From NCBI RefSeq assembly GCF_044324785.1, contig NZ_CP172127.1: DNA of 64,000 nucleotides. One strand, 5' to 3'. Position numbers and translations under genes: made by a program. This document shows, piece after piece, positions 14,032-20,007 of this stretch. The notes beneath the pieces are model-generated. The model made no database searches, was not told where the DNA came from, and was given only the letters and a program-made list of their open reading frames with translations. Origin of the DNA: Escherichia coli. Lineage in GTDB: Bacteria; Pseudomonadota; Gammaproteobacteria; Enterobacterales; Enterobacteriaceae. The number at the start of each line of letters is the position of its first letter. Position 1 is the first letter of the stretch.

Positions 14032-14250
14032 ATGGAAAAAGAGCAGCTGATTGAAATAGCCAATACGATAATGCCGTTTGGCAAATACAAAGGGCGTCGC
14101 TTAATCGACCTGCCGGAGGAGTATCTTCTGTGGTTTGCCCGCAAAGATGAGTTCCCGGCAGGGAAGCTCGGTGAGCTAATGCAAATCACGCTGCTGATTA
14201 AAACTGAGGGGCTGACGCAACTGGTCCAGCCCCTGAAGCGTCCTCTTTAA
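14032..14250 (+). CDS. ypeB: small conserved protein (DUF3820 type)
   Basis: 72 aa; start 2 nt after ligA stop; stop overlaps yfeH stop on opposite strand (TTAA). Confidence 0.8.
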   Translation: MEKEQLIEIANTIMPFGKYKGRRLIDLPEEYLLWFARKDEFPAGKLGELMQITLLIKTEGLTQLVQPLKRPL

Positions 14251-15245
14251 GCTTTATTGGCGCGGCTTTCCTGCTGCGCCTGTAACTGTTCGGTCTGGTG
14301 TTTGTATCGACGCGCCAGCACCGCACAGACCATCAATTGGATCTGATGGAAAATCATCAGAGGCAGCACCATCATACCGATCACCGATGTGGGGAAAAGA
14401 ATGTTTGCCATCGGGATGCCATTTGCCAGACTCTTTTTCGAACCACAAAAGACGATAGTAATTTCATCTGCCTTATTGAAGCCCAGTCGGCGTGCCATAA
14501 AGACGTTAACTACGATCACGATAGCCAGAAGAACGCAGCTGACCACCACGATAAACAGCAATGATCCCCAGCCAACTTTATGCCAGATACCATTAACAAC
14601 GGCTTCGCTAAACGCTGTATAAACCACCAACAGAATGGACGTCTGGTCAGTTTTCGCAATCCATTTTTTATTGCGCGACACCCAGTCACCAATCCACGGC
14701 CGGGAAAGATGCCCCAACACAAACGGCAGCAGCAGTTGCAGCATAATTTTACCGACCTGCTCAAGGCTGCCTCCCGCACCGTGAACATTCATCACCAGAC
14801 CAACCAGCAATGGTGAAAGGAAAATCCCCAGCAGGCTGGATGCTGACGCAGAACAAACCGCTGCCGCGACGTTACCGCCCGCCATTGAAGTAAAGGCGAT
14901 TGCAGACTGCACGGTAGCGGGGAGAATGCACAAGTAGAGAAAACCGGAGTAGAGCATCGGGTCGACATTTACCGGTTTCCACCAGGCAAACAGCACGCCC
15001 AGAATCGGAAACAATACGAAGGTGCTGCACATTACCCACAAATGCAGTCGCCAGTGCCCACCGCCAGCAATAATCGCCTCACGCGACAACTTCGCGCCGT
15101 GCATAAAAAACAGCAGGGCAATCGCTGCGGTGGTCAGATTTTCAAAGAAGGGGACGAAATCGCCTCTGGCCGGAAAGAAAGAGGCCAGCAACACCACCGT
15201 GATCAGGGTTAAGGTGAAAGGATCGAGGATACGAAAAAGTTTCAT
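14247..15245 (-). CDS. yfeH: bile acid:sodium symporter (BASS) family transporter
   Basis: 332 aa polytopic membrane protein. Confidence 0.85.
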   Translation of the reverse strand: MKLFRILDPFTLTLITVVLLASFFPARGDFVPFFENLTTAAIALLFFMHGAKLSREAIIAGGGHWRLHLWVMCSTFVLFPILGVLFAWWKPVNVDPMLYSGFLYLCILPATVQSAIAFTSMAGGNVAAAVCSASASSLLGIFLSPLLVGLVMNVHGAGGSLEQVGKIMLQLLLPFVLGHLSRPWIGDWVSRNKKWIAKTDQTSILLVVYTAFSEAVVNGIWHKVGWGSLLFIVVVSCVLLAIVIVVNVFMARRLGFNKADEITIVFCGSKKSLANGIPMANILFPTSVIGMMVLPLMIFHQIQLMVCAVLARRYKHQTEQLQAQQESRANKA

Positions 15246-15334
15246 AAAGACTCCAGATGATCGATGGTTCTATTGTGCTTCTTCCAGTTTGAGAAATAAA
15301 ATTGATTTATTGCATCCATTCATGAAGAAAACAG

Positions 15335-16261
15335 ATGAATTATTCTTTAAAACAATTAAAGGTTTTCGTCACAGTAGCGCAGGAGAAAAGTTTTAGTCGT
15401 GCAGGAGAGCGTATCGGCCTGAGCCAGTCGGCAGTGAGTCACAGTGTGAAGGAGCTGGAAAATCATACTGGTGTTCGCCTGCTGGACAGAACCACGCGTG
15501 AAGTGGTGCTTACAGATGCAGGGCAGCAGTTGGCTTTGCGTCTTGAGCGACTGCTGGATGAACTGAACAGCACGTTGCGCGATACCGGGCGTATGGGGCA
15601 ACAACTGAGCGGAAAAGTTCGGGTCGCTGCCAGCCAGACCATTTCCGCGCATCTTATTCCGCAATGCATTGCTGAAAGCCATCGCCGCTATCCAGATATT
15701 CAGTTTGTCCTGCACGATCGTCCGCAGCAGTGGGTGATGGAAAGTATTCGCCAGGGAGATGTCGATTTTGGCATCGTCATCGATCCAGGCCCAGTGAGCG
15801 ATCTGCAATGTGAAGCGATTCTTTCCGAGCCTTTCTTTCTGCTTTGCCATCGCGATAGCGCTTTGGCCGTGGAAGATTATGTACCCTGGCAGGCATTACA
15901 GGGAGCGAAATTGGTGTTGCAGGATTACGCGTCAGGCAGCCGACCGCTGATTGACGCAGCTCTGGCGCGCAACGGTATTCAGGCGAATATTGTGCAGGAG
16001 ATTGGTCATCCGGCGACGCTGTTCCCGATGGTAGCCGCAGGCATCGGCATTAGTATTCTTCCCGCACTGGCGCTGCCGTTACCTGAAGGTAGCCCGCTGG
16101 TGGTAAAGCGCATTACGCCGGTGGTGGAACGCCAGTTGATGCTGGTGCGCAGGAAGAACCGTTCACTTTCCACCGCCGCTGAAGCGTTATGGGACGTGGT
16201 ACGAGGCCAGGGCCGTGCGCTAATGGCTGGGCGGGAAGGGGATCCGCTGTATCAGATATAG
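15335..16261 (+). CDS. yfeR: LysR-family transcriptional regulator
   Basis: 308 aa; N-terminal HTH ([35 protein letters not shown]) and LysR substrate-binding domain. Confidence 0.88.
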
Positions 16262-16593
16262 ATATCGATCTGAGTCGTTTTTTCAACAGGATTTGGAAGG
16301 GATGCATTCAAAGACAAACTCTGCTCTTTCTCCTGCGCCTTTTCTGCCTGCTGTCTTTGCAACTGCGCCAGTTGTGTTTCCAGTAGGGTGATTTGCTGCT
16401 GAATCAATTCGGCCTGTTTTTGCTTGTCTTCAGCACTGCCGCTAGTGTCTGCAATCTCTTTAATTTGTTGAGTGAGTTTGATGATTTGCTGACTTATCCG
16501 CGCAATTTGTGAAGCAACATCGCTACCTTCTGATGCCCTGTTACTACTCTGTGTTTGTATGGAAGGAATTGAAGTTGAAGAGATAGTGGCCAT
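16252..16593 (-). CDS. small Gln-rich coiled-coil protein, FlxA-like in character
   Basis: 113 aa, Ser/Thr-rich N-terminus then Q/K/E coiled-coil ([27 protein letters not shown]), C-terminal ...TQIDIYI; 10-bp convergent overlap with yfeR stop; family assignment from memory of FlxA-like proteins, not searched. Confidence 0.5.
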
Positions 16594-16680
16594 TGTTCAG
16601 TCCTCGTCACTGTACGAGGTAATATCGGCAGAAGAACAAGGAACTTGAGAAGAAAAATCAATCTTACAAACCGCATATAG

Positions 16681-16708
16681 CAAAAAAGCGCCTTTAGGGC
16701 GCTTTTTT
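16681..16708 (-). terminator. rho-independent terminator ending the Val-Val-Val-Lys tRNA operon
   Basis: agcgcc-ttta-ggcgct hairpin followed (minus strand) by T-run, immediately 3' of tRNA-Lys. Confidence 0.75.
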
Positions 16709-16712
16709 ACAT

Positions 16713-16788
16713 TGGTGGGTCGTGCAGGATTCGAACCTGCGACCAATTGATTAAAAGTCAACTGCTCTACCAACTGAGCTAACGACCC
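16713..16788 (-). tRNA. lysV: tRNA-Lys (anticodon UUU)
   Basis: Reverse complement GGGTCGTTAGCTCAGTTGGTAGAGCAGTTGACTTTTAATCAATTGGTCGCAGGTTCGAATCCTGCACGACCCACCA, 76 nt, encoded CCA. Confidence 0.95.
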
Positions 16789-16792
16789 GAAG

Positions 16793-16868
16793 TGGTGGGT
16801 GATGACGGGATCGAACCGCCGACCCCCTCCTTGTAAGGGAGGTGCTCTCCCAGCTGAGCTAATCACCC
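16793..16868 (-). tRNA. valY: tRNA-Val (anticodon UAC)
   Basis: rc GGGTGATTAGCTCAGCTGGGAGAGCACCTCCCTTACAAGGAGGGGGTCGGCGGTTCGATCCCGTCATCACCCACCA; one of three identical copies. Confidence 0.95.
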
Positions 16869-16914
16869 ACTTCGGTACTTCACATTTTTACAAGAAATTT
16901 AGCTGGCGAGAAAG

Positions 16915-16990
16915 TGGTGGGTGATGACGGGATCGAACCGCCGACCCCCTCCTTGTAAGGGAGGTGCTCTCCCAGCTGAGCTAATCACCC
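16915..16990 (-). tRNA. valX: tRNA-Val (anticodon UAC)
   Basis: Identical 76-nt sequence to copy at 16793-16868. Confidence 0.95.
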
Positions 16991-17034
16991 ACTTCTCAAT
17001 TTCTTGCTACACGGCGGAGACTACATAAAGTAGT

Positions 17035-17110
17035 TGGTGGGTGATGACGGGATCGAACCGCCGACCCCCTCCTTGTAAGGGAGGTGCTCTCCCAGCTGAG
17101 CTAATCACCC
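17035..17110 (-). tRNA. valU: tRNA-Val (anticodon UAC)
   Basis: Identical 76-nt sequence; first gene of the tRNA operon, divergent from gltX. Confidence 0.95.
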
Positions 17111-17368
17111 CCGCTGTGTGGAGTCGCATTATAGGGAGAGTTCAAAATGAGTCAACGCATTTTCTAAAGAAATTGTTCGTTCGTCGTAAATTTAAGCAAG
17201 ATGATCGCAAAACAGACCGTGTTGCGCAATTTGTCAACGAAAACAATAATGCGTAAGGTTGCAACCCGAACTACATTGAGGAATCAGGCGGGAGTGATAG
17301 AATATCGCCCACTCAATTTTTCCAGGATTTGCCGGTTGTCGGCATCTTTCTAAACGTAAGGCCATTTC

Positions 17369-18784
17369 ATGAAAATCAAAACTCGCTTCGCGCCAAGCCC
17401 AACAGGCTATCTGCACGTTGGCGGCGCGCGTACTGCTCTTTACTCCTGGCTTTTTGCACGTAACCACGGCGGTGAGTTCGTGCTGCGTATTGAAGACACC
17501 GATCTTGAGCGTTCCACGCCGGAAGCTATCGAAGCCATTATGGATGGCATGAACTGGCTGAGCCTGGAGTGGGATGAAGGTCCGTACTACCAGACCAAAC
17601 GTTTTGATCGCTACAACGCGGTGATCGATCAGATGCTGGAAGAGGGCACAGCTTATAAATGCTATTGTTCTAAAGAGCGCCTGGAAGCGCTGCGCGAAGA
17701 GCAAATGGCGAAAGGTGAGAAGCCGCGTTATGACGGTCGCTGCCGCCACAGCCATGAGCATCATGCTGATGATGAACCGTGCGTTGTACGTTTTGCTAAC
17801 CCGCAGGAAGGTTCTGTTGTTTTTGACGATCAGATCCGTGGCCCGATTGAGTTCAGCAACCAGGAGCTGGATGATCTGATCATTCGCCGTACCGATGGTT
17901 CCCCAACCTATAACTTCTGTGTGGTTGTTGATGACTGGGATATGGAAATCACCCATGTTATCCGTGGCGAAGACCATATCAACAACACGCCGCGCCAGAT
18001 CAACATTCTTAAAGCCCTGAAAGCGCCGGTACCGGTTTACGCGCACGTTTCTATGATCAACGGCGATGACGGTAAAAAACTGTCCAAACGTCACGGGGCG
18101 GTCAGCGTAATGCAGTATCGTGATGACGGTTATCTGCCAGAAGCACTGCTGAACTATCTGGTGCGTCTGGGCTGGTCCCACGGCGATCAGGAAATCTTCA
18201 CTCGTGAAGAGATGATCAAATACTTCACCCTGAATGCCGTCAGCAAATCTGCCAGTGCGTTCAACACCGACAAGCTGCTGTGGCTGAACCATCACTACAT
18301 TAACGCGCTGCCGCCGGAGTATGTTGCTACTCACTTACAGTGGCACATTGAGCAGGAAAATATCGATACCCGTAACGGCCCGCAGCTGGCTGATCTGGTG
18401 AAACTGCTGGGCGAACGCTGCAAGACGCTGAAAGAGATGGCACAGAGCTGCCGTTATTTCTACGAAGATTTTGCTGAGTTCGATGCCGACGCCGCGAAAA
18501 AACATCTGCGTCCAGTAGCGCGTCAGCCGCTGGAAGTAGTTCGTGACAAACTGGCCGCGATTACTGACTGGACAGCTGAAAACGTTCATCACGCTATTCA
18601 GGCGACGGCGGATGAGCTGGAAGTGGGTATGGGTAAAGTTGGTATGCCGCTGCGTGTCGCCGTTACCGGTGCGGGGCAGTCTCCGGCGCTGGATGTTACC
18701 GTTCACGCAATCGGTAAGACCCGCAGTATCGAGCGTATCAACAAAGCGCTGGCTTTTATTGCTGAACGCGAAAATCAGCAGTAA
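17369..18784 (+). CDS. gltX: glutamyl-tRNA synthetase
   Basis: 471 aa; class I HIGH motif (HVGGART) and KMSKS-like KLSKR. Confidence 0.97.
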
Positions 18785-18800
18785 TTAGCGCATAAAAGAT

Positions 18801-18833
18801 AAACGGCAGGAGAGATACCCCTGCCGTTTTTTA
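18801..18833. terminator. bidirectional rho-independent terminator between gltX and yfeD
   Basis: aaacggcagg-agagatac-cctgccgtttttt. Confidence 0.8.
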
Positions 18834-18834
18834 T

Positions 18835-19227
18835 TTATTCTGATTCATCTATGTCGAGACGAGCAAGGAAATTACGAATTCCTTCGCGTGACAAAAATTG
18901 CGCAACTTTTTCCTGCTCACTGTGAGTCATGTTGTCTATTGCGCTGATGATTTGCCGATAAGCAGGAGTGCGAATCCCCGGTGCGTATTCGGCAAGGGGT
19001 TCTTCGGCTTCCAGAAGCATCGGCGTGTTATGGAAGGCTGGCGTGTTCTGAATAAACTCGCAAACTTGCGTATCGACCAGAATAAGTCTGGCACGACCGC
19101 CTTTCACGCCAGGAAATTTTTCCGTTTTCCAGCCTTTTTCTCTGATCCAACGGTTAACAGTTTGTTTAGCCACACCGAGGCATTCAGCCAGTTCTTCGGT
19201 GGTCATTTTATTGCGTAATCTTTTCAT
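18835..19227 (-). CDS. yfeD: putative HTH DNA-binding protein (YfeC/YfeD family)
   Basis: 130 aa; paralog of adjacent yfeC (shared motif ...QT(I/V)N(K/R)W(V/I)R(K/E)(E/K)GW(T/K)T...PGV(Q/K)GG(K/R)ARL). Confidence 0.8.
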   Translation of the reverse strand: MKRLRNKMTTEELAECLGVAKQTVNRWIREKGWKTEKFPGVKGGRARLILVDTQVCEFIQNTPAFHNTPMLLEAEEPLAEYAPGIRTPAYRQIISAIDNMTHSEQEKVAQFLSREGIRNFLARLDIDESE

Positions 19228-19228
19228 A

Positions 19229-19573
19229 TTATTTGCTATCGCGAATCCCTAAGCGTTGTAATAATCCGATAATCCCTTCCCGCAGAAGCAAGGATGTAAA
19301 CTGTTTTTGTTCAACTGGCGTCATCTCTTTCGCCAGTGTCACCAGCAACACTTCAAGCGGCGCATCACCAGACAGGGCAGGCGCTTCTCCCTGACCTTCT
19401 GGACGTTCAGCATTGCGAATATATTCACGAACCTGTTCATTGACGTGAACCAGTCGGGCTTTGCCACCCTGGACGCCTGGTTTTGGTGACGTTGTCCAGC
19501 CTTCCTTGCGTACCCATTTATTAATGGTCTGGCGGCTATAGCCGGTCAGTCTGGCAAGTTCATCTGGCGTCAT
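19229..19573 (-). CDS. yfeC: putative HTH DNA-binding protein (YfeC/YfeD family)
   Basis: 114 aa from the ATG at 19573, which is preceded by SD aaggagagg; ORF-track start at 19588 would place the SD inside the CDS. Confidence 0.8.
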   Translation of the reverse strand: MTPDELARLTGYSRQTINKWVRKEGWTTSPKPGVQGGKARLVHVNEQVREYIRNAERPEGQGEAPALSGDAPLEVLLVTLAKEMTPVEQKQFTSLLLREGIIGLLQRLGIRDSK

Positions 19574-19808
19574 CCTCTCCTTGAACATAACAATTCCCTG
19601 AATGTATGTGGGTCTATTAGTAGTTCATTTTATAACACCACTTTACAGGAAACCGTGACATGAATAACTACTGAATGCGAGCGGTTTTCCAAAATTGTTC
19701 ATTTGCCTGATTTTTCAGCGATTGAAACTACACGTTGCAATTTGCCGTTGACACATTCGGGCGGAATTCATATGATGCCGCCCGTCAACTCGACAAGCTT
19801 TACGTGAC

Positions 19809-19884
<76 letters not shown>

Positions 19885-19923
19885 AATTTTGCACCCAGCA
19901 AATTTGGTACGTAAACGCATCGT

Positions 19924-19999
<76 letters not shown>

Positions 20000-20007
20000 A
20001 ATTTCCA

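Follow-up and report, generated by a model that had tools for sequence, protein, structure and literature searches.

A FlxA-family gene with a predicted sigma-28 promoter between yfeR and lysV is most likely the ancestral state of a two-state locus in Escherichia coli

In the 64-kb stretch of Escherichia coli DNA analysed here (the window), the interval between yfeR and the tRNA-Lys gene lysV holds a small FlxA-family gene at the site where K-12 carries genes for xanthosine catabolism. Our overall explanation, to which we give a probability of about 0.8, is that an ancestral FlxA-family gene with a sigma-28 promoter was replaced by xap/yfeN genes in most E. coli. The gene would occupy the site that it has held since early in the enterobacteria, facing yfeR tail to tail directly past the terminator of a tRNA operon, and a horizontally mobile yfeN-xapA-xapB-xapR cassette would have replaced it in about 76% of E. 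coli, exchanging the interval from one base past the yfeR stop to just short of the lysV terminator. The arrangement in the window is common and already annotated; it is no new insertion, and the state seen here is most likely the old one.

Two states between yfeR and lysV

From the yfeR stop to the 3′ end of tRNA-Lys, the interval measures 451 bp and, as an earlier reading of the letters without database searches (the sequence-only reading) had described, contains a single 113-aa minus-strand ORF whose stop overlaps that of yfeR by 10 bp (Table 1). The same reading had placed about 4.5 kb of xap and yfeN genes at this site in K-12 and had proposed that the locus varies; both points were borne out. 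The K-12 lineage carries yfeN-xapA-xapB-(DUF1427)-xapR, about 4.4 kb, between yfeR and lysV, and homologues of XapA, XapB and YfeN are missing from the entire window. Across 5426 complete E. coli genomes, the FlxA-like segment is present in 1316 (24%, including O157:H7 and BL21) and the xap/yfeN cassette in 4099 (about 76%), and the two states look almost mutually exclusive. Junction sequences set side by side with K-12 mapped the left breakpoint to between 16262 and 16263 and the right breakpoint to about 16664–16667.

Table 1. Features of the yfeR–lysV region, in window coordinates
Feature	Position	Strand	Description	Basis
yfeR	15335–16261	+	LysR-family regulator, convergent with the FlxA-like ORF	ORF list, RefSeq annotation of matching loci
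FlxA-like CDS	16252–16593	−	113 aa, ATG start	ORF list, Pfam, alignment, AlphaFold2
Convergent stop-region overlap of yfeR and FlxA-like gene	16252–16261		10 nt; centre of the near-palindrome in the sequence-only reading	
Haplotype-specific segment	16263–16666		about 404 bp, missing in K-12-type genomes	Junction sequences side by side, population counts
Shine–Dalgarno sequence of FlxA-like gene	16601–16605	−	GAGGA, 7 nt 5′ of the ATG	Read from sequence
Predicted FliA (sigma-28) class-3 promoter	16621–16648	−	TCAAGTTC-N11-GCCGATAT(T)	
Predicted −35 element	16641–16648			
Predicted −10 element	16622–16629			
Intrinsic terminator of the valU-valX-valY-lysV tRNA operon	16680–16710			Fold, identity with K-12
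lysV	16713–16788	−	tRNA-Lys(UUU)	
valY, valX, valU	16793–17110	−	Three tRNA-Val(UAC) genes	

The K-12 cassette fills exactly the same interval from the yfeR stop to the lysV terminator, and its yfeN is placed and oriented like the FlxA-like gene in Citrobacter. In content it differs entirely, comprising unrelated genes (a nucleoside channel, a phosphorylase, a permease and a LysR activator) that occupy 4.4 kb rather than 0.4 kb. It also differs in its sporadic distribution, and xapR is a published case of repeated horizontal transfer (PMC2395238 Fig. 3). Within E. coli, the cassette falls into two old allele classes, of at least 99% and of 90–95% identity, and so is itself also old in the species. 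The locus illustrates cleanly how one cassette can replace another segment while the flanks stay fixed: K-12-type strains would have gained xanthosine catabolism at the expense of a predicted flagellar-regulon gene.

Strain HH97 resembled a relic of a state in which the FlxA-like gene and xap coexisted. A16–A20 runs and duplicated fragments abound in the 1.2-kb segment of this strain, which may have been misassembled, and we give it no weight.

Synteny across enterobacterial genera

Several lines of evidence bear on which of the two states is the older. First, the matches listed place a FlxA-like gene next to the valU-lysV operon, in convergent orientation with yfeR, in about 15 enterobacterial genera. 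The order gltX, three tRNA-Val genes, tRNA-Lys, FlxA-like gene, yfeR, yfeH recurs in the listed Pseudocitrobacter, Kluyvera, Pluralibacter, Citrobacter, Cedecea, Enterobacter, Leclercia, Yokenella, Lelliottia, Superficieibacter, Buttiauxella, Pantoea, Phytobacter and Kosakonia. Also among the matches listed, six Citrobacter or Enterobacter loci read lysV-xapR-xapB-xapA-FlxA-like-yfeR, without yfeN. Given the same gene at the same site in so many listed genera, the arrangement in the window is most likely ancestral and that of K-12 a derived replacement; within E. coli, the FlxA-like state would most likely be ancestral and xap/yfeN derived, a polarity that rests on outgroup synteny exclusive of other Escherichia species and Salmonella. 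The genome scan was made with five close FlxA-like sequences as its model, and those other Escherichia species and Salmonella fall outside the matches listed, so that their absence from the list is uninformative.

Second, synonymous divergence argues for some lateral exchange of yfeR and the FlxA-like gene as a block, since both are unusually close to Pseudocitrobacter faecalis (dS 0.62–0.64, against 1.31 for the adjacent yfeH). This raises the alternative that the FlxA-like state was re-acquired in E. coli by homologous recombination from a Pseudocitrobacter-like donor into a xap-bearing ancestor, a course of events with which the saturated dS of yfeR against other genera and the two old xap allele classes would also agree. 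We regard it as unlikely: K-12-type genomes share the Pseudocitrobacter-like yfeR (dS 0.07 to the window), so that any exchange came before the two states diverged and affected the species as a whole, and its direction could equally have run from Escherichia to Pseudocitrobacter.

Third, the locus has few of the marks of a tRNA-associated genomic island. The sequence-only reading had favoured an integration or replacement hotspot, with the ORF inserted beside the lysV 3′ end and a near-palindrome at the overlapping stops as a possible junction. Like such islands, the segment is strain-variable and adjoins a tRNA 3′ end; its GC content is low (42–44%, against 52–60% in yfeR), and K-12 homology does stop within the palindromic stretch. 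Unlike them, it has neither an integrase nor an att-type repeat of the tRNA end, and its content appears ancestral rather than foreign. No integrase or other mobility gene lies between yfeR and gltX, and searches with NCBIfam and Pfam found no recombinase domain in the sole substantial ORF between yfeR and lysV. The tRNA-Lys 3′ end (25 nt, at most three mismatches) occurs as a single copy in the window, and no direct repeats flanking the variable segment were found. Rather than being sporadic and missing at this site from related genera, the gene is present there in about 15 listed genera. The lower GC content of the segment stood up on comparison, but low GC would itself follow from encoding so much Q, K, E, I, S and T.

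Nor is the near-palindrome a recombination scar. Its 10-nt overlap encodes both C termini (LYQI in YfeR and IDIYI in the FlxA-like protein, each followed by a stop), is conserved in Pseudocitrobacter, Citrobacter, Kluyvera, Yokenella and Superficieibacter, and has a folding energy unremarkable beside that of its shuffles (z 0.55 and 0.09); of the proposed junction, what survives is that K-12 homology ends inside it. Integration as a tRNA-linked islet is therefore very improbable, and we retain the reading of an ancestral gene replaced in K-12-type strains.

A FlxA-family gene under purifying selection

The resemblance to FlxA-like proteins noted from the letters was borne out by profile search: the 113-aa protein matches Pfam FlxA (PF14282) with an i-Evalue of 5e-15 and a score of 55.9 over model positions 4–83 of 101, and precomputed PF14282 matches are present on all of its close homologues. 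In RefSeq the ORF is annotated as a "FlxA-like family protein", and in the Sakai record it appears as flxA (ECs_3279); a literature search found no published work on the FlxA-like gene or ECs3279.

The Ser/Thr-rich N terminus and heptad coiled coil that had been described were likewise recovered. The 113 residues include 20 Q, 15 S, 14 I, 9 E and 7 K; the first 27 contain 8 Ser and 3 Thr, and two heptad runs follow 4,3,4,3 spacing (V26-I30-I33-I37-L40-I44-I47 and I64-I68-L71-L75-L78). In the AlphaFold2 model, helices span residues 23–49 and 54–94, residues 1–22 form a disordered Ser/Thr-rich segment, and the disordered tail ends in the conserved IDIYI; the product is thus predicted to be a small hairpin of two heptad coiled-coil helices, disordered at either end. 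The family alignment keeps I37, Q67, I68, L71, Q77, Q82, A83 and Y112 each in at least 90% of sequences and has IDIY[IV] as its conserved C-terminal motif, and the window protein shows the features of the family: about 100–120 aa, a low-complexity N terminus, a core of two Q-rich heptad helices, and [IV]D[IV]Y[IV] at the C terminus. Other searches returned generic matches. NCBIfam gave sub-threshold coiled-coil noise only, a PDB sequence search gave designed coiled coils only, and Foldseek against the PDB gave nothing at E < 0.19, its matches being generic helical hairpins (the LSD1 tower, ING4 and CdsO). The match to CdsO, a FliJ-like protein, is such a hairpin at E ≥ 0.19, and we do not read it as homology.

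Comparison between genera shows constraint on the protein. Against P. faecalis, dN/dS is 0.13 at a dS of 0.62, and the reading frame is intact at 102–119 aa in 26 species loci. With this ratio and a GAGGA Shine–Dalgarno sequence, the ORF exceeds a chance reading frame, and we conclude that the chromosome carries a real gene here, which belongs to the FlxA family and is under purifying selection. Within E. coli, dN/dS rises to 0.5–0.6 (a value resting on few changes), the O157:H7 allele carries D110G inside the conserved C-terminal motif, and IS1203 interrupts the ORF in one strain. The first two of these suggest that constraint may be relaxed in some lineages; all three would be expected if the ORF were spurious or decaying and the segment a mere intergenic tail of the tRNA operon. 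That view is scarcely credible against the low ratio over the longer distance, the intact frames, the Pfam match and the conserved promoter and Shine–Dalgarno sequence.

A conserved sigma-28 promoter motif

The gene itself was already annotated; its predicted sigma-28 promoter is a new observation here. The predicted element, TCAAGTTC-N11-GCCGATAT, is the sole match to the FliA consensus with at most three mismatches in the 64 kb, conforms to the class-3 type TAAAGTTT-N11-GCCGATAA and ends 28 nt before the ATG. Scored with a position weight matrix, it reaches 18.7 bits, ranking first of about 128,000 window positions (the runner-up has 14.0) and exceeding the leave-one-out scores of the ChIP-verified sites of flgKL, trg, ycgR, aer and fliC, which were taken from PMC4183435.

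The motif is also conserved. In 26 of 27 species loci, a tCAAG..N..GCCGATA motif stands 24–31 nt 5′ of the ATG, persisting at a fixed distance from the start codon while the spacer and flanks diverge, and it is intact in the E. coli alleles examined. Promoter scores at the species loci run from 12 to 21.6 bits, against an 11.6-bit 99th percentile for the best background score in 160 nt. With its own predicted sigma-28 promoter, the FlxA-like gene probably belongs to the class-3 genes of the flagellar regulon, with transcription from a start predicted near 16612–16615. FliA-dependent transcription would match that of the K-12 paralogue flxA, the prophage gene that the existing FliA-dependence data concern (PMC4183435, PMC1935009); the FliA regulon was mapped in K-12, which has no yfeR-adjacent FlxA-like gene.

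Relation to the prophage gene flxA of K-12

K-12 FlxA (b1566, PF14282) is close to the window protein in length (110 against 113 aa) and shares its architecture: a Ser/Thr-rich N terminus, two heptad helices, and IDIY[VI] at the C terminus, with 45% identity over a 74-aa helical core. A FliA-type promoter, TAAAGATT-N11-GCCGATAG, likewise lies shortly upstream of flxA. The two genes differ in setting and in the standing of their regulation. K-12 flxA is borne by the Qin cryptic prophage, whereas the window gene is chromosomal, syntenic and overlaps the yfeR 3′ end; FliA dependence is measured for flxA and predicted for the window gene. The K-12 promoter is FliA-bound, and deleting fliA lowers flxA expression from 280 to 2 (PMC4183435 Table 2).

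The Qin location invites the idea that FlxA-family genes are phage morons and the window gene a domesticated prophage remnant left at the tRNA locus. K-12 FlxA is indeed a full-length member of phrog_11044 (E 1.8e-71), a profile that the window protein matches weakly (E 2e-9, residues 16–88 only). No phage gene, however, adjoins the FlxA-like gene in any of 37 loci, and the synteny and divergence over many genera fit long vertical residence. A tblastn search of 50,697 phage records (E ≤ 1e-3, low-complexity filter on) found no relative. A prophage origin is thus quite unlikely, and the prophage flxA copies are more likely captures of the host gene.

On the preferred reading of an ancestral chromosomal gene, K-12 would have lost a gene with a FliA promoter that is kept at a fixed site in about 15 listed genera, and its only FlxA-family gene is the prophage paralogue. 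Strains with the native gene may therefore suit work on FlxA function better.

A possible role in flagellar export

Ide and Kutsukake reportedly found in 1997 that flxA is dispensable for motility. The K-12 gene has no obvious role in flagellar synthesis or motility (PMC4183435), and K-12 FlxA was detected in an E. coli exoproteome, co-upregulated with FlgK, FlgL, FliD, FliC and FlgM (PMC6391000 Table 1), evidence that is correlative and concerns the paralogue. By analogy with these five late export substrates, we speculate that the FlxA-like protein may be exported late by the flagellar type III apparatus or act as an accessory to it, a tentative proposal. The likenesses are a (predicted) sigma-28 promoter, small size as in FlgM, a disordered N terminus, heptad helices with disordered ends, and the appearance of the paralogue in the supernatant with exactly those proteins (PMC6391000); the difference is that the FlxA-like protein resembles none of them in sequence, nor significantly in fold. 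More doubtful still is the broader possibility that the FlxA family as a whole comprises unrecognised small late substrates or export-gate accessories, with the yfeR-adjacent copy as the ancestral member and K-12 keeping the prophage paralogue only. If so, the loss in K-12 would help to explain the missing phenotype in the model strain.

Transcription signals around the gene

The intrinsic terminator of the tRNA operon folds at −19.1 kcal/mol (z −5.55) and is identical in sequence in K-12. An A-run and a U-run flank its stem, so it should terminate in both directions, and it stands between the tRNA operon and the promoter of the FlxA-like gene. It was established by folding, having been overlooked by a consensus terminator scan that also gave no minus-strand terminator for the FlxA-like ORF. 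An Rfam search of 15800–17400 returned nothing besides the tRNAs. A hairpin considered in the 5′ leader of the FlxA-like gene (CCTCGT...ACGAGG) was set aside: the expected sigma-28 start falls within its 5′ arm, and the transcribed portion folds unremarkably (z −1.4). Separately, the consensus scan marked a weak plus-strand hairpin at 16398–16413, which may end yfeR.

A FlxA-family gene between yfeR and lysV

Comparative evidence indicates that the FlxA-like gene next to the tRNA-Lys gene lysV occupies an ancestral chromosomal position, with a strongly conserved predicted sigma-28 promoter motif, in about a quarter of Escherichia coli genomes, the K-12 arrangement being a derived replacement. 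The FlxA-like open reading frame (ORF), the difference from the K-12 xap/yfeN arrangement and the variability of the locus, all noted in a sequence-only reading, hold up; the integration hotspot, palindromic scar and unusual status also proposed there do not. Conserved promoter, replacement polarity and a dual-coding overlap are small additions to known annotation.

Features of the yfeR–lysV interval (window positions)
Feature	Position	Strand	Remark
Gene order			ligA, ypeB, yfeH(-), yfeR(+), FlxA-like ORF(-), tRNA-Lys(UUU)(-), 3x tRNA-Val(UAC), gltX(+)
yfeR	15335-16261	+	
FlxA-like ORF	16252-16593	-	113 aa
tRNA-Lys(UUU), lysV	16713-16788	-	
Window-specific segment	16263-16666		~404 bp; junction comparison with K-12-type genomes
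Putative sigma-28 promoter	16622-16648	-	28 nt before FlxA-like ATG
Weak hairpin	16398-16413	+	inside FlxA-like ORF; may end yfeR

The ORF is a genuine gene of the FlxA family, and existing annotation already records it. A Pfam profile search matches it to FlxA (PF14282, E 5e-15), and BLASTP gives 45% identity to K-12 FlxA over 74 residues. Every detail of its first description (a 113-aa minus-strand ORF, Q-rich heptads, FlxA likeness) was borne out, as were the distance between the yfeR stop and the tRNA-Lys 3′ end, remeasured at 451 bp, and the 10 nt shared by the two stops. The protein contains 20 Gln, 15 Ser, 14 Ile, 9 Glu and 7 Lys, with hydrophobic residues in a regular 4,3 heptad pattern at V26-I30-I33-I37-L40-I44-I47 and I64-I68-L71-L75-L78. 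An AlphaFold2 model from a 63-sequence alignment (mean pLDDT 69.5, ~90 within helices) predicts a disordered segment (residues 1–22), a helix (23–49), a four-residue turn, a second helix (54–94) and a disordered tail. A PDB sequence search found no solved structure for the family, which is small, with 93 clusters (50% identity) out of 1.8 billion representatives, and Foldseek found no significant structural neighbour of the model in the PDB.

A GAGGA Shine-Dalgarno sequence lies 7 nt from the ATG, and the frame is unbroken, at 102–119 aa, in 26 species loci among those listed; comparison with Pseudocitrobacter faecalis gives a dN/dS of 0.13 at a dS of 0.62. We rejected an origin as a prophage remnant in favour of a host gene, because tblastn against 50,697 phage records (E ≤ 1e-3, low-complexity filter on) returned no close relatives and the protein matches the phage family containing K-12 FlxA only weakly. 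Within E. coli, the differences are few and mostly nonsynonymous (dN/dS ~0.5–0.6). The O157:H7 allele (comparison loci L045, 1490–1831, and L047, 112–1370) differs from the window at 9 nonsynonymous and 4 synonymous positions and carries D110G, changing the conserved IDIYI to IGIYI, and in strain CUVET18-789 (L004, 2582–4236) an IS1203 element (IS3 family) splits the gene into two pseudogene fragments. On these three observations, constraint may be relaxed in some E. coli lineages.

Two alternative states in E. coli

The K-12 map, with the xap genes and yfeN between lysV and yfeR, was seen in XL1-Blue (a K-12 derivative) and clinical strain 3150, both with the order yfeR, yfeN(-), xapA, xapB, a small DUF1427 gene, xapR and tRNA-Lys. 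Placed side by side, window and K-12-type junctions are identical as far as the first base after the yfeR stop (16262) and then wholly divergent until ~16664–16667, immediately before the strong hairpin of the lysV terminator (-19.1 kcal/mol, z -5.55). These breakpoints delimit the window-specific ~404 bp, against a K-12-specific segment of ~4.4 kb. No homologue of XapA, XapB or YfeN was found anywhere in the 64 kb, and K-12-like genomes do not carry the same ORF with the xap genes simply elsewhere.

Of 5426 complete E. coli genomes, 1316 carry the 404-bp segment, O157:H7, O145:H28 and BL21 among them, always on the chromosome and almost always at one site per genome, in two allele groups (~99% and ~97% identity to the window). 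The xap/yfeN cassette occurs in 4099. The two counts sum to 5415, with one genome, the anomalous HH97, noticed in both result sets, and going by these numbers the states seem to be alternatives that essentially exclude each other. The arrangement, first taken to be unusual, is an ordinary and already annotated polymorphism: RefSeq names the gene 'FlxA-like family protein', and the Sakai reference record calls it flxA (ECs_3279), beside a yfeR (ECs_3280) annotated as a pseudogene.

The cassette itself (L002, 8064–12462) forms two deeply diverged allele classes, at ≥99% identity in 2435 E. coli genomes and 90–95% in 1642, a divergence far exceeding that of flanking core genes. A third state, in HH97 (L044, 4644–5860), spans 1.2 kb in which degenerate FlxA-like pieces, duplicated in part, and an xapB fragment (~84% identity) are interspersed with A16–A20 runs, and could be a decayed haplotype with both genes or an assembly artefact. 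An 8-kb stretch of core genes in the window (12000–20000) is just 98.8% identical to its best match among the 5426 genomes, so that the DNA comes from a lineage, or from a near relative of the kind of Shigella, with no close representative there. In TUM14771, the closest carrier (L001, 6703–8344), gltX and yfeD are separated by an IS609-family tnpA pseudogene and a TnpB (InsQ) gene, both absent from the window. In some carriers, such as O166:H15 JNE070796 (L005, 3395–3672; ~16667–16712 in the window), 159 bp annotated as 'RtT sRNA' are inserted between the FlxA-like promoter and lysV. The insertion copies the lysV terminator, together with 18 nt from the 3′ end of tRNA-Lys, around a GC-rich core of repeats resembling those downstream of tyrT; it has the look of a tandem duplication, not of an att site.

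Probable polarity of the replacement

To place the two states in order, one genome per species was scanned, and the 37 loci listed were mapped by tblastn and for their tRNA genes; other Escherichia species and Salmonella were not among the matches listed. Among these matches, the FlxA-like gene is convergent with yfeR and adjoins the valU-lysV tRNA operon in at least 14 genera (Pseudocitrobacter, Kluyvera, Pluralibacter, Citrobacter, Cedecea, Enterobacter, Leclercia, Yokenella, Lelliottia, Superficieibacter, Buttiauxella, Pantoea, Phytobacter and Kosakonia). At least six loci (Citrobacter werkmanii, C. youngae, two further Citrobacter species, Enterobacter chuandaensis and one E. asburiae) carry both gene sets, as lysV-xapR-xapB-xapA-FlxA-like-yfeR. 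These lack yfeN, so the K-12 yfeN has the place and orientation of the FlxA-like gene. Repeated horizontal transfer of xapR with xapA among gamma-proteobacteria has been described (PMC2395238 Fig. 3). Read most simply, these data would make the FlxA-like gene the ancestral occupant and the K-12 state derived: the xap genes would have inserted between the FlxA-like gene and lysV in some lineages, and a xap-plus-yfeN cassette would have replaced the FlxA-like gene in most E. coli.

A caveat to this reading is an unexpected closeness between E. coli (15335–16593) and P. faecalis (L007, 6001–7259): dS is 0.62–0.64 for yfeR and the FlxA-like gene but 1.31 for the adjoining yfeH, which suggests an old lateral exchange of the yfeR/FlxA-like block between the two lineages. 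K-12-type yfeR has the same P. faecalis affinity, so that the exchange would predate the dimorphism. Comparisons of yfeR with Citrobacter, Enterobacter and RIT691, an Enterobacteriaceae isolate, are saturated.

Integration at the tRNA 3′ end, as first proposed, finds no trace here. The stretch from yfeR to gltX contains neither an integrase nor any other mobility gene, the tRNA-Lys 3′ end occurs just once in the window, even with three mismatches allowed, and flanking direct repeats are absent. The near-palindrome at the stop overlap had been read as a possible recombination junction, and the K-12 breakpoint does fall inside it, because the replacement took away everything past yfeR. Yet it folds no better than shuffled sequences (z 0.55 and 0.09 on the two strands), and the overlap sequence, tatcagatataR|ATATCGATCTGA, is kept in Pseudocitrobacter, Citrobacter, Kluyvera, Yokenella and Superficieibacter, encoding the YfeR C terminus (LYQI*) on one strand and the conserved FlxA-like C terminus (IDIYI*) on the other. 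GC content is lower in the ORF than in yfeR (43.6% versus 52–60%), but amino-acid composition accounts for this.

A predicted flagellar promoter

Upstream of the FlxA-like gene lies TCAAGTTC-N11-GCCGATAT. No other site in the 64 kb matches TAAAGTTT-N11-GCCGATAA at up to three mismatches; chance would give ~0.6 matches in the whole window and roughly 5e-4 in the 100 nt upstream of the gene on the right strand. A weight matrix for FliA (flagellar sigma-28), built from 25 ChIP-seq sites with FAT > 4 (Fitzgerald et al. 2014, PMC4183435 Table 2), ranks this site first of ~128,000 positions (18.7 bits; second best, 14.0), above the leave-one-out values of the verified flgKL, trg, ycgR, aer and fliC promoters. 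Among the loci listed, 26 of 27 species loci have the motif tCAAG...GCCGATA 24–31 nt upstream of the ATG, with diverged spacer and flanks and spacer-masked scores of 12–21.6 bits against a 99th-percentile background of 11.6. All six E. coli alleles examined keep it unbroken, with ACCGATAT in BL21 and CUVET18-789; ACCGATAA is present too in the verified ycgR and fliD sites (PMC4183435).

The promoter of the K-12 paralogue flxA is bound by FliA, and deleting fliA lowers flxA expression from 280 to 2 (PMC4183435); a value of -28-fold is also given for flxA (PMC1935009). From the likeness of its sigma-28 motif, we infer that the window gene is FliA-dependent as well. The lysV terminator lies 32 nt before the -35 element and should shield the gene from read-through out of the tRNA operon, leaving it reliant on its own predicted promoter. 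In the 20–30 nt between the -10 element and the ATG, just 5′ of the Shine-Dalgarno sequence, many genera (L013, L017, L019, L020, L024, L036, L039 and others) share TTTTA(T/C)GGC, a possible conserved leader element, in place of which CCTCGTACAGTGACGAGG stands in E. coli and Pseudocitrobacter.

Possible role

Class-3 (FliA-dependent) timing, small size, a disordered Ser/Thr-rich N terminus and helices with disordered ends underlie our preferred guess, of fairly low probability, that the protein would be exported late by the flagellar type III apparatus or serve as an accessory to it. One correlative support is that K-12 FlxA was detected in an E. coli exoproteome, co-upregulated with exactly the canonical late substrates FlgK, FlgL, FliD, FliC and FlgM (PMC6391000 Table 1). 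Coupling of yfeR and the FlxA-like gene through convergent, overlapping transcription is a further possibility, since no terminator separates the two and yfeR may end at the weak hairpin within the ORF.
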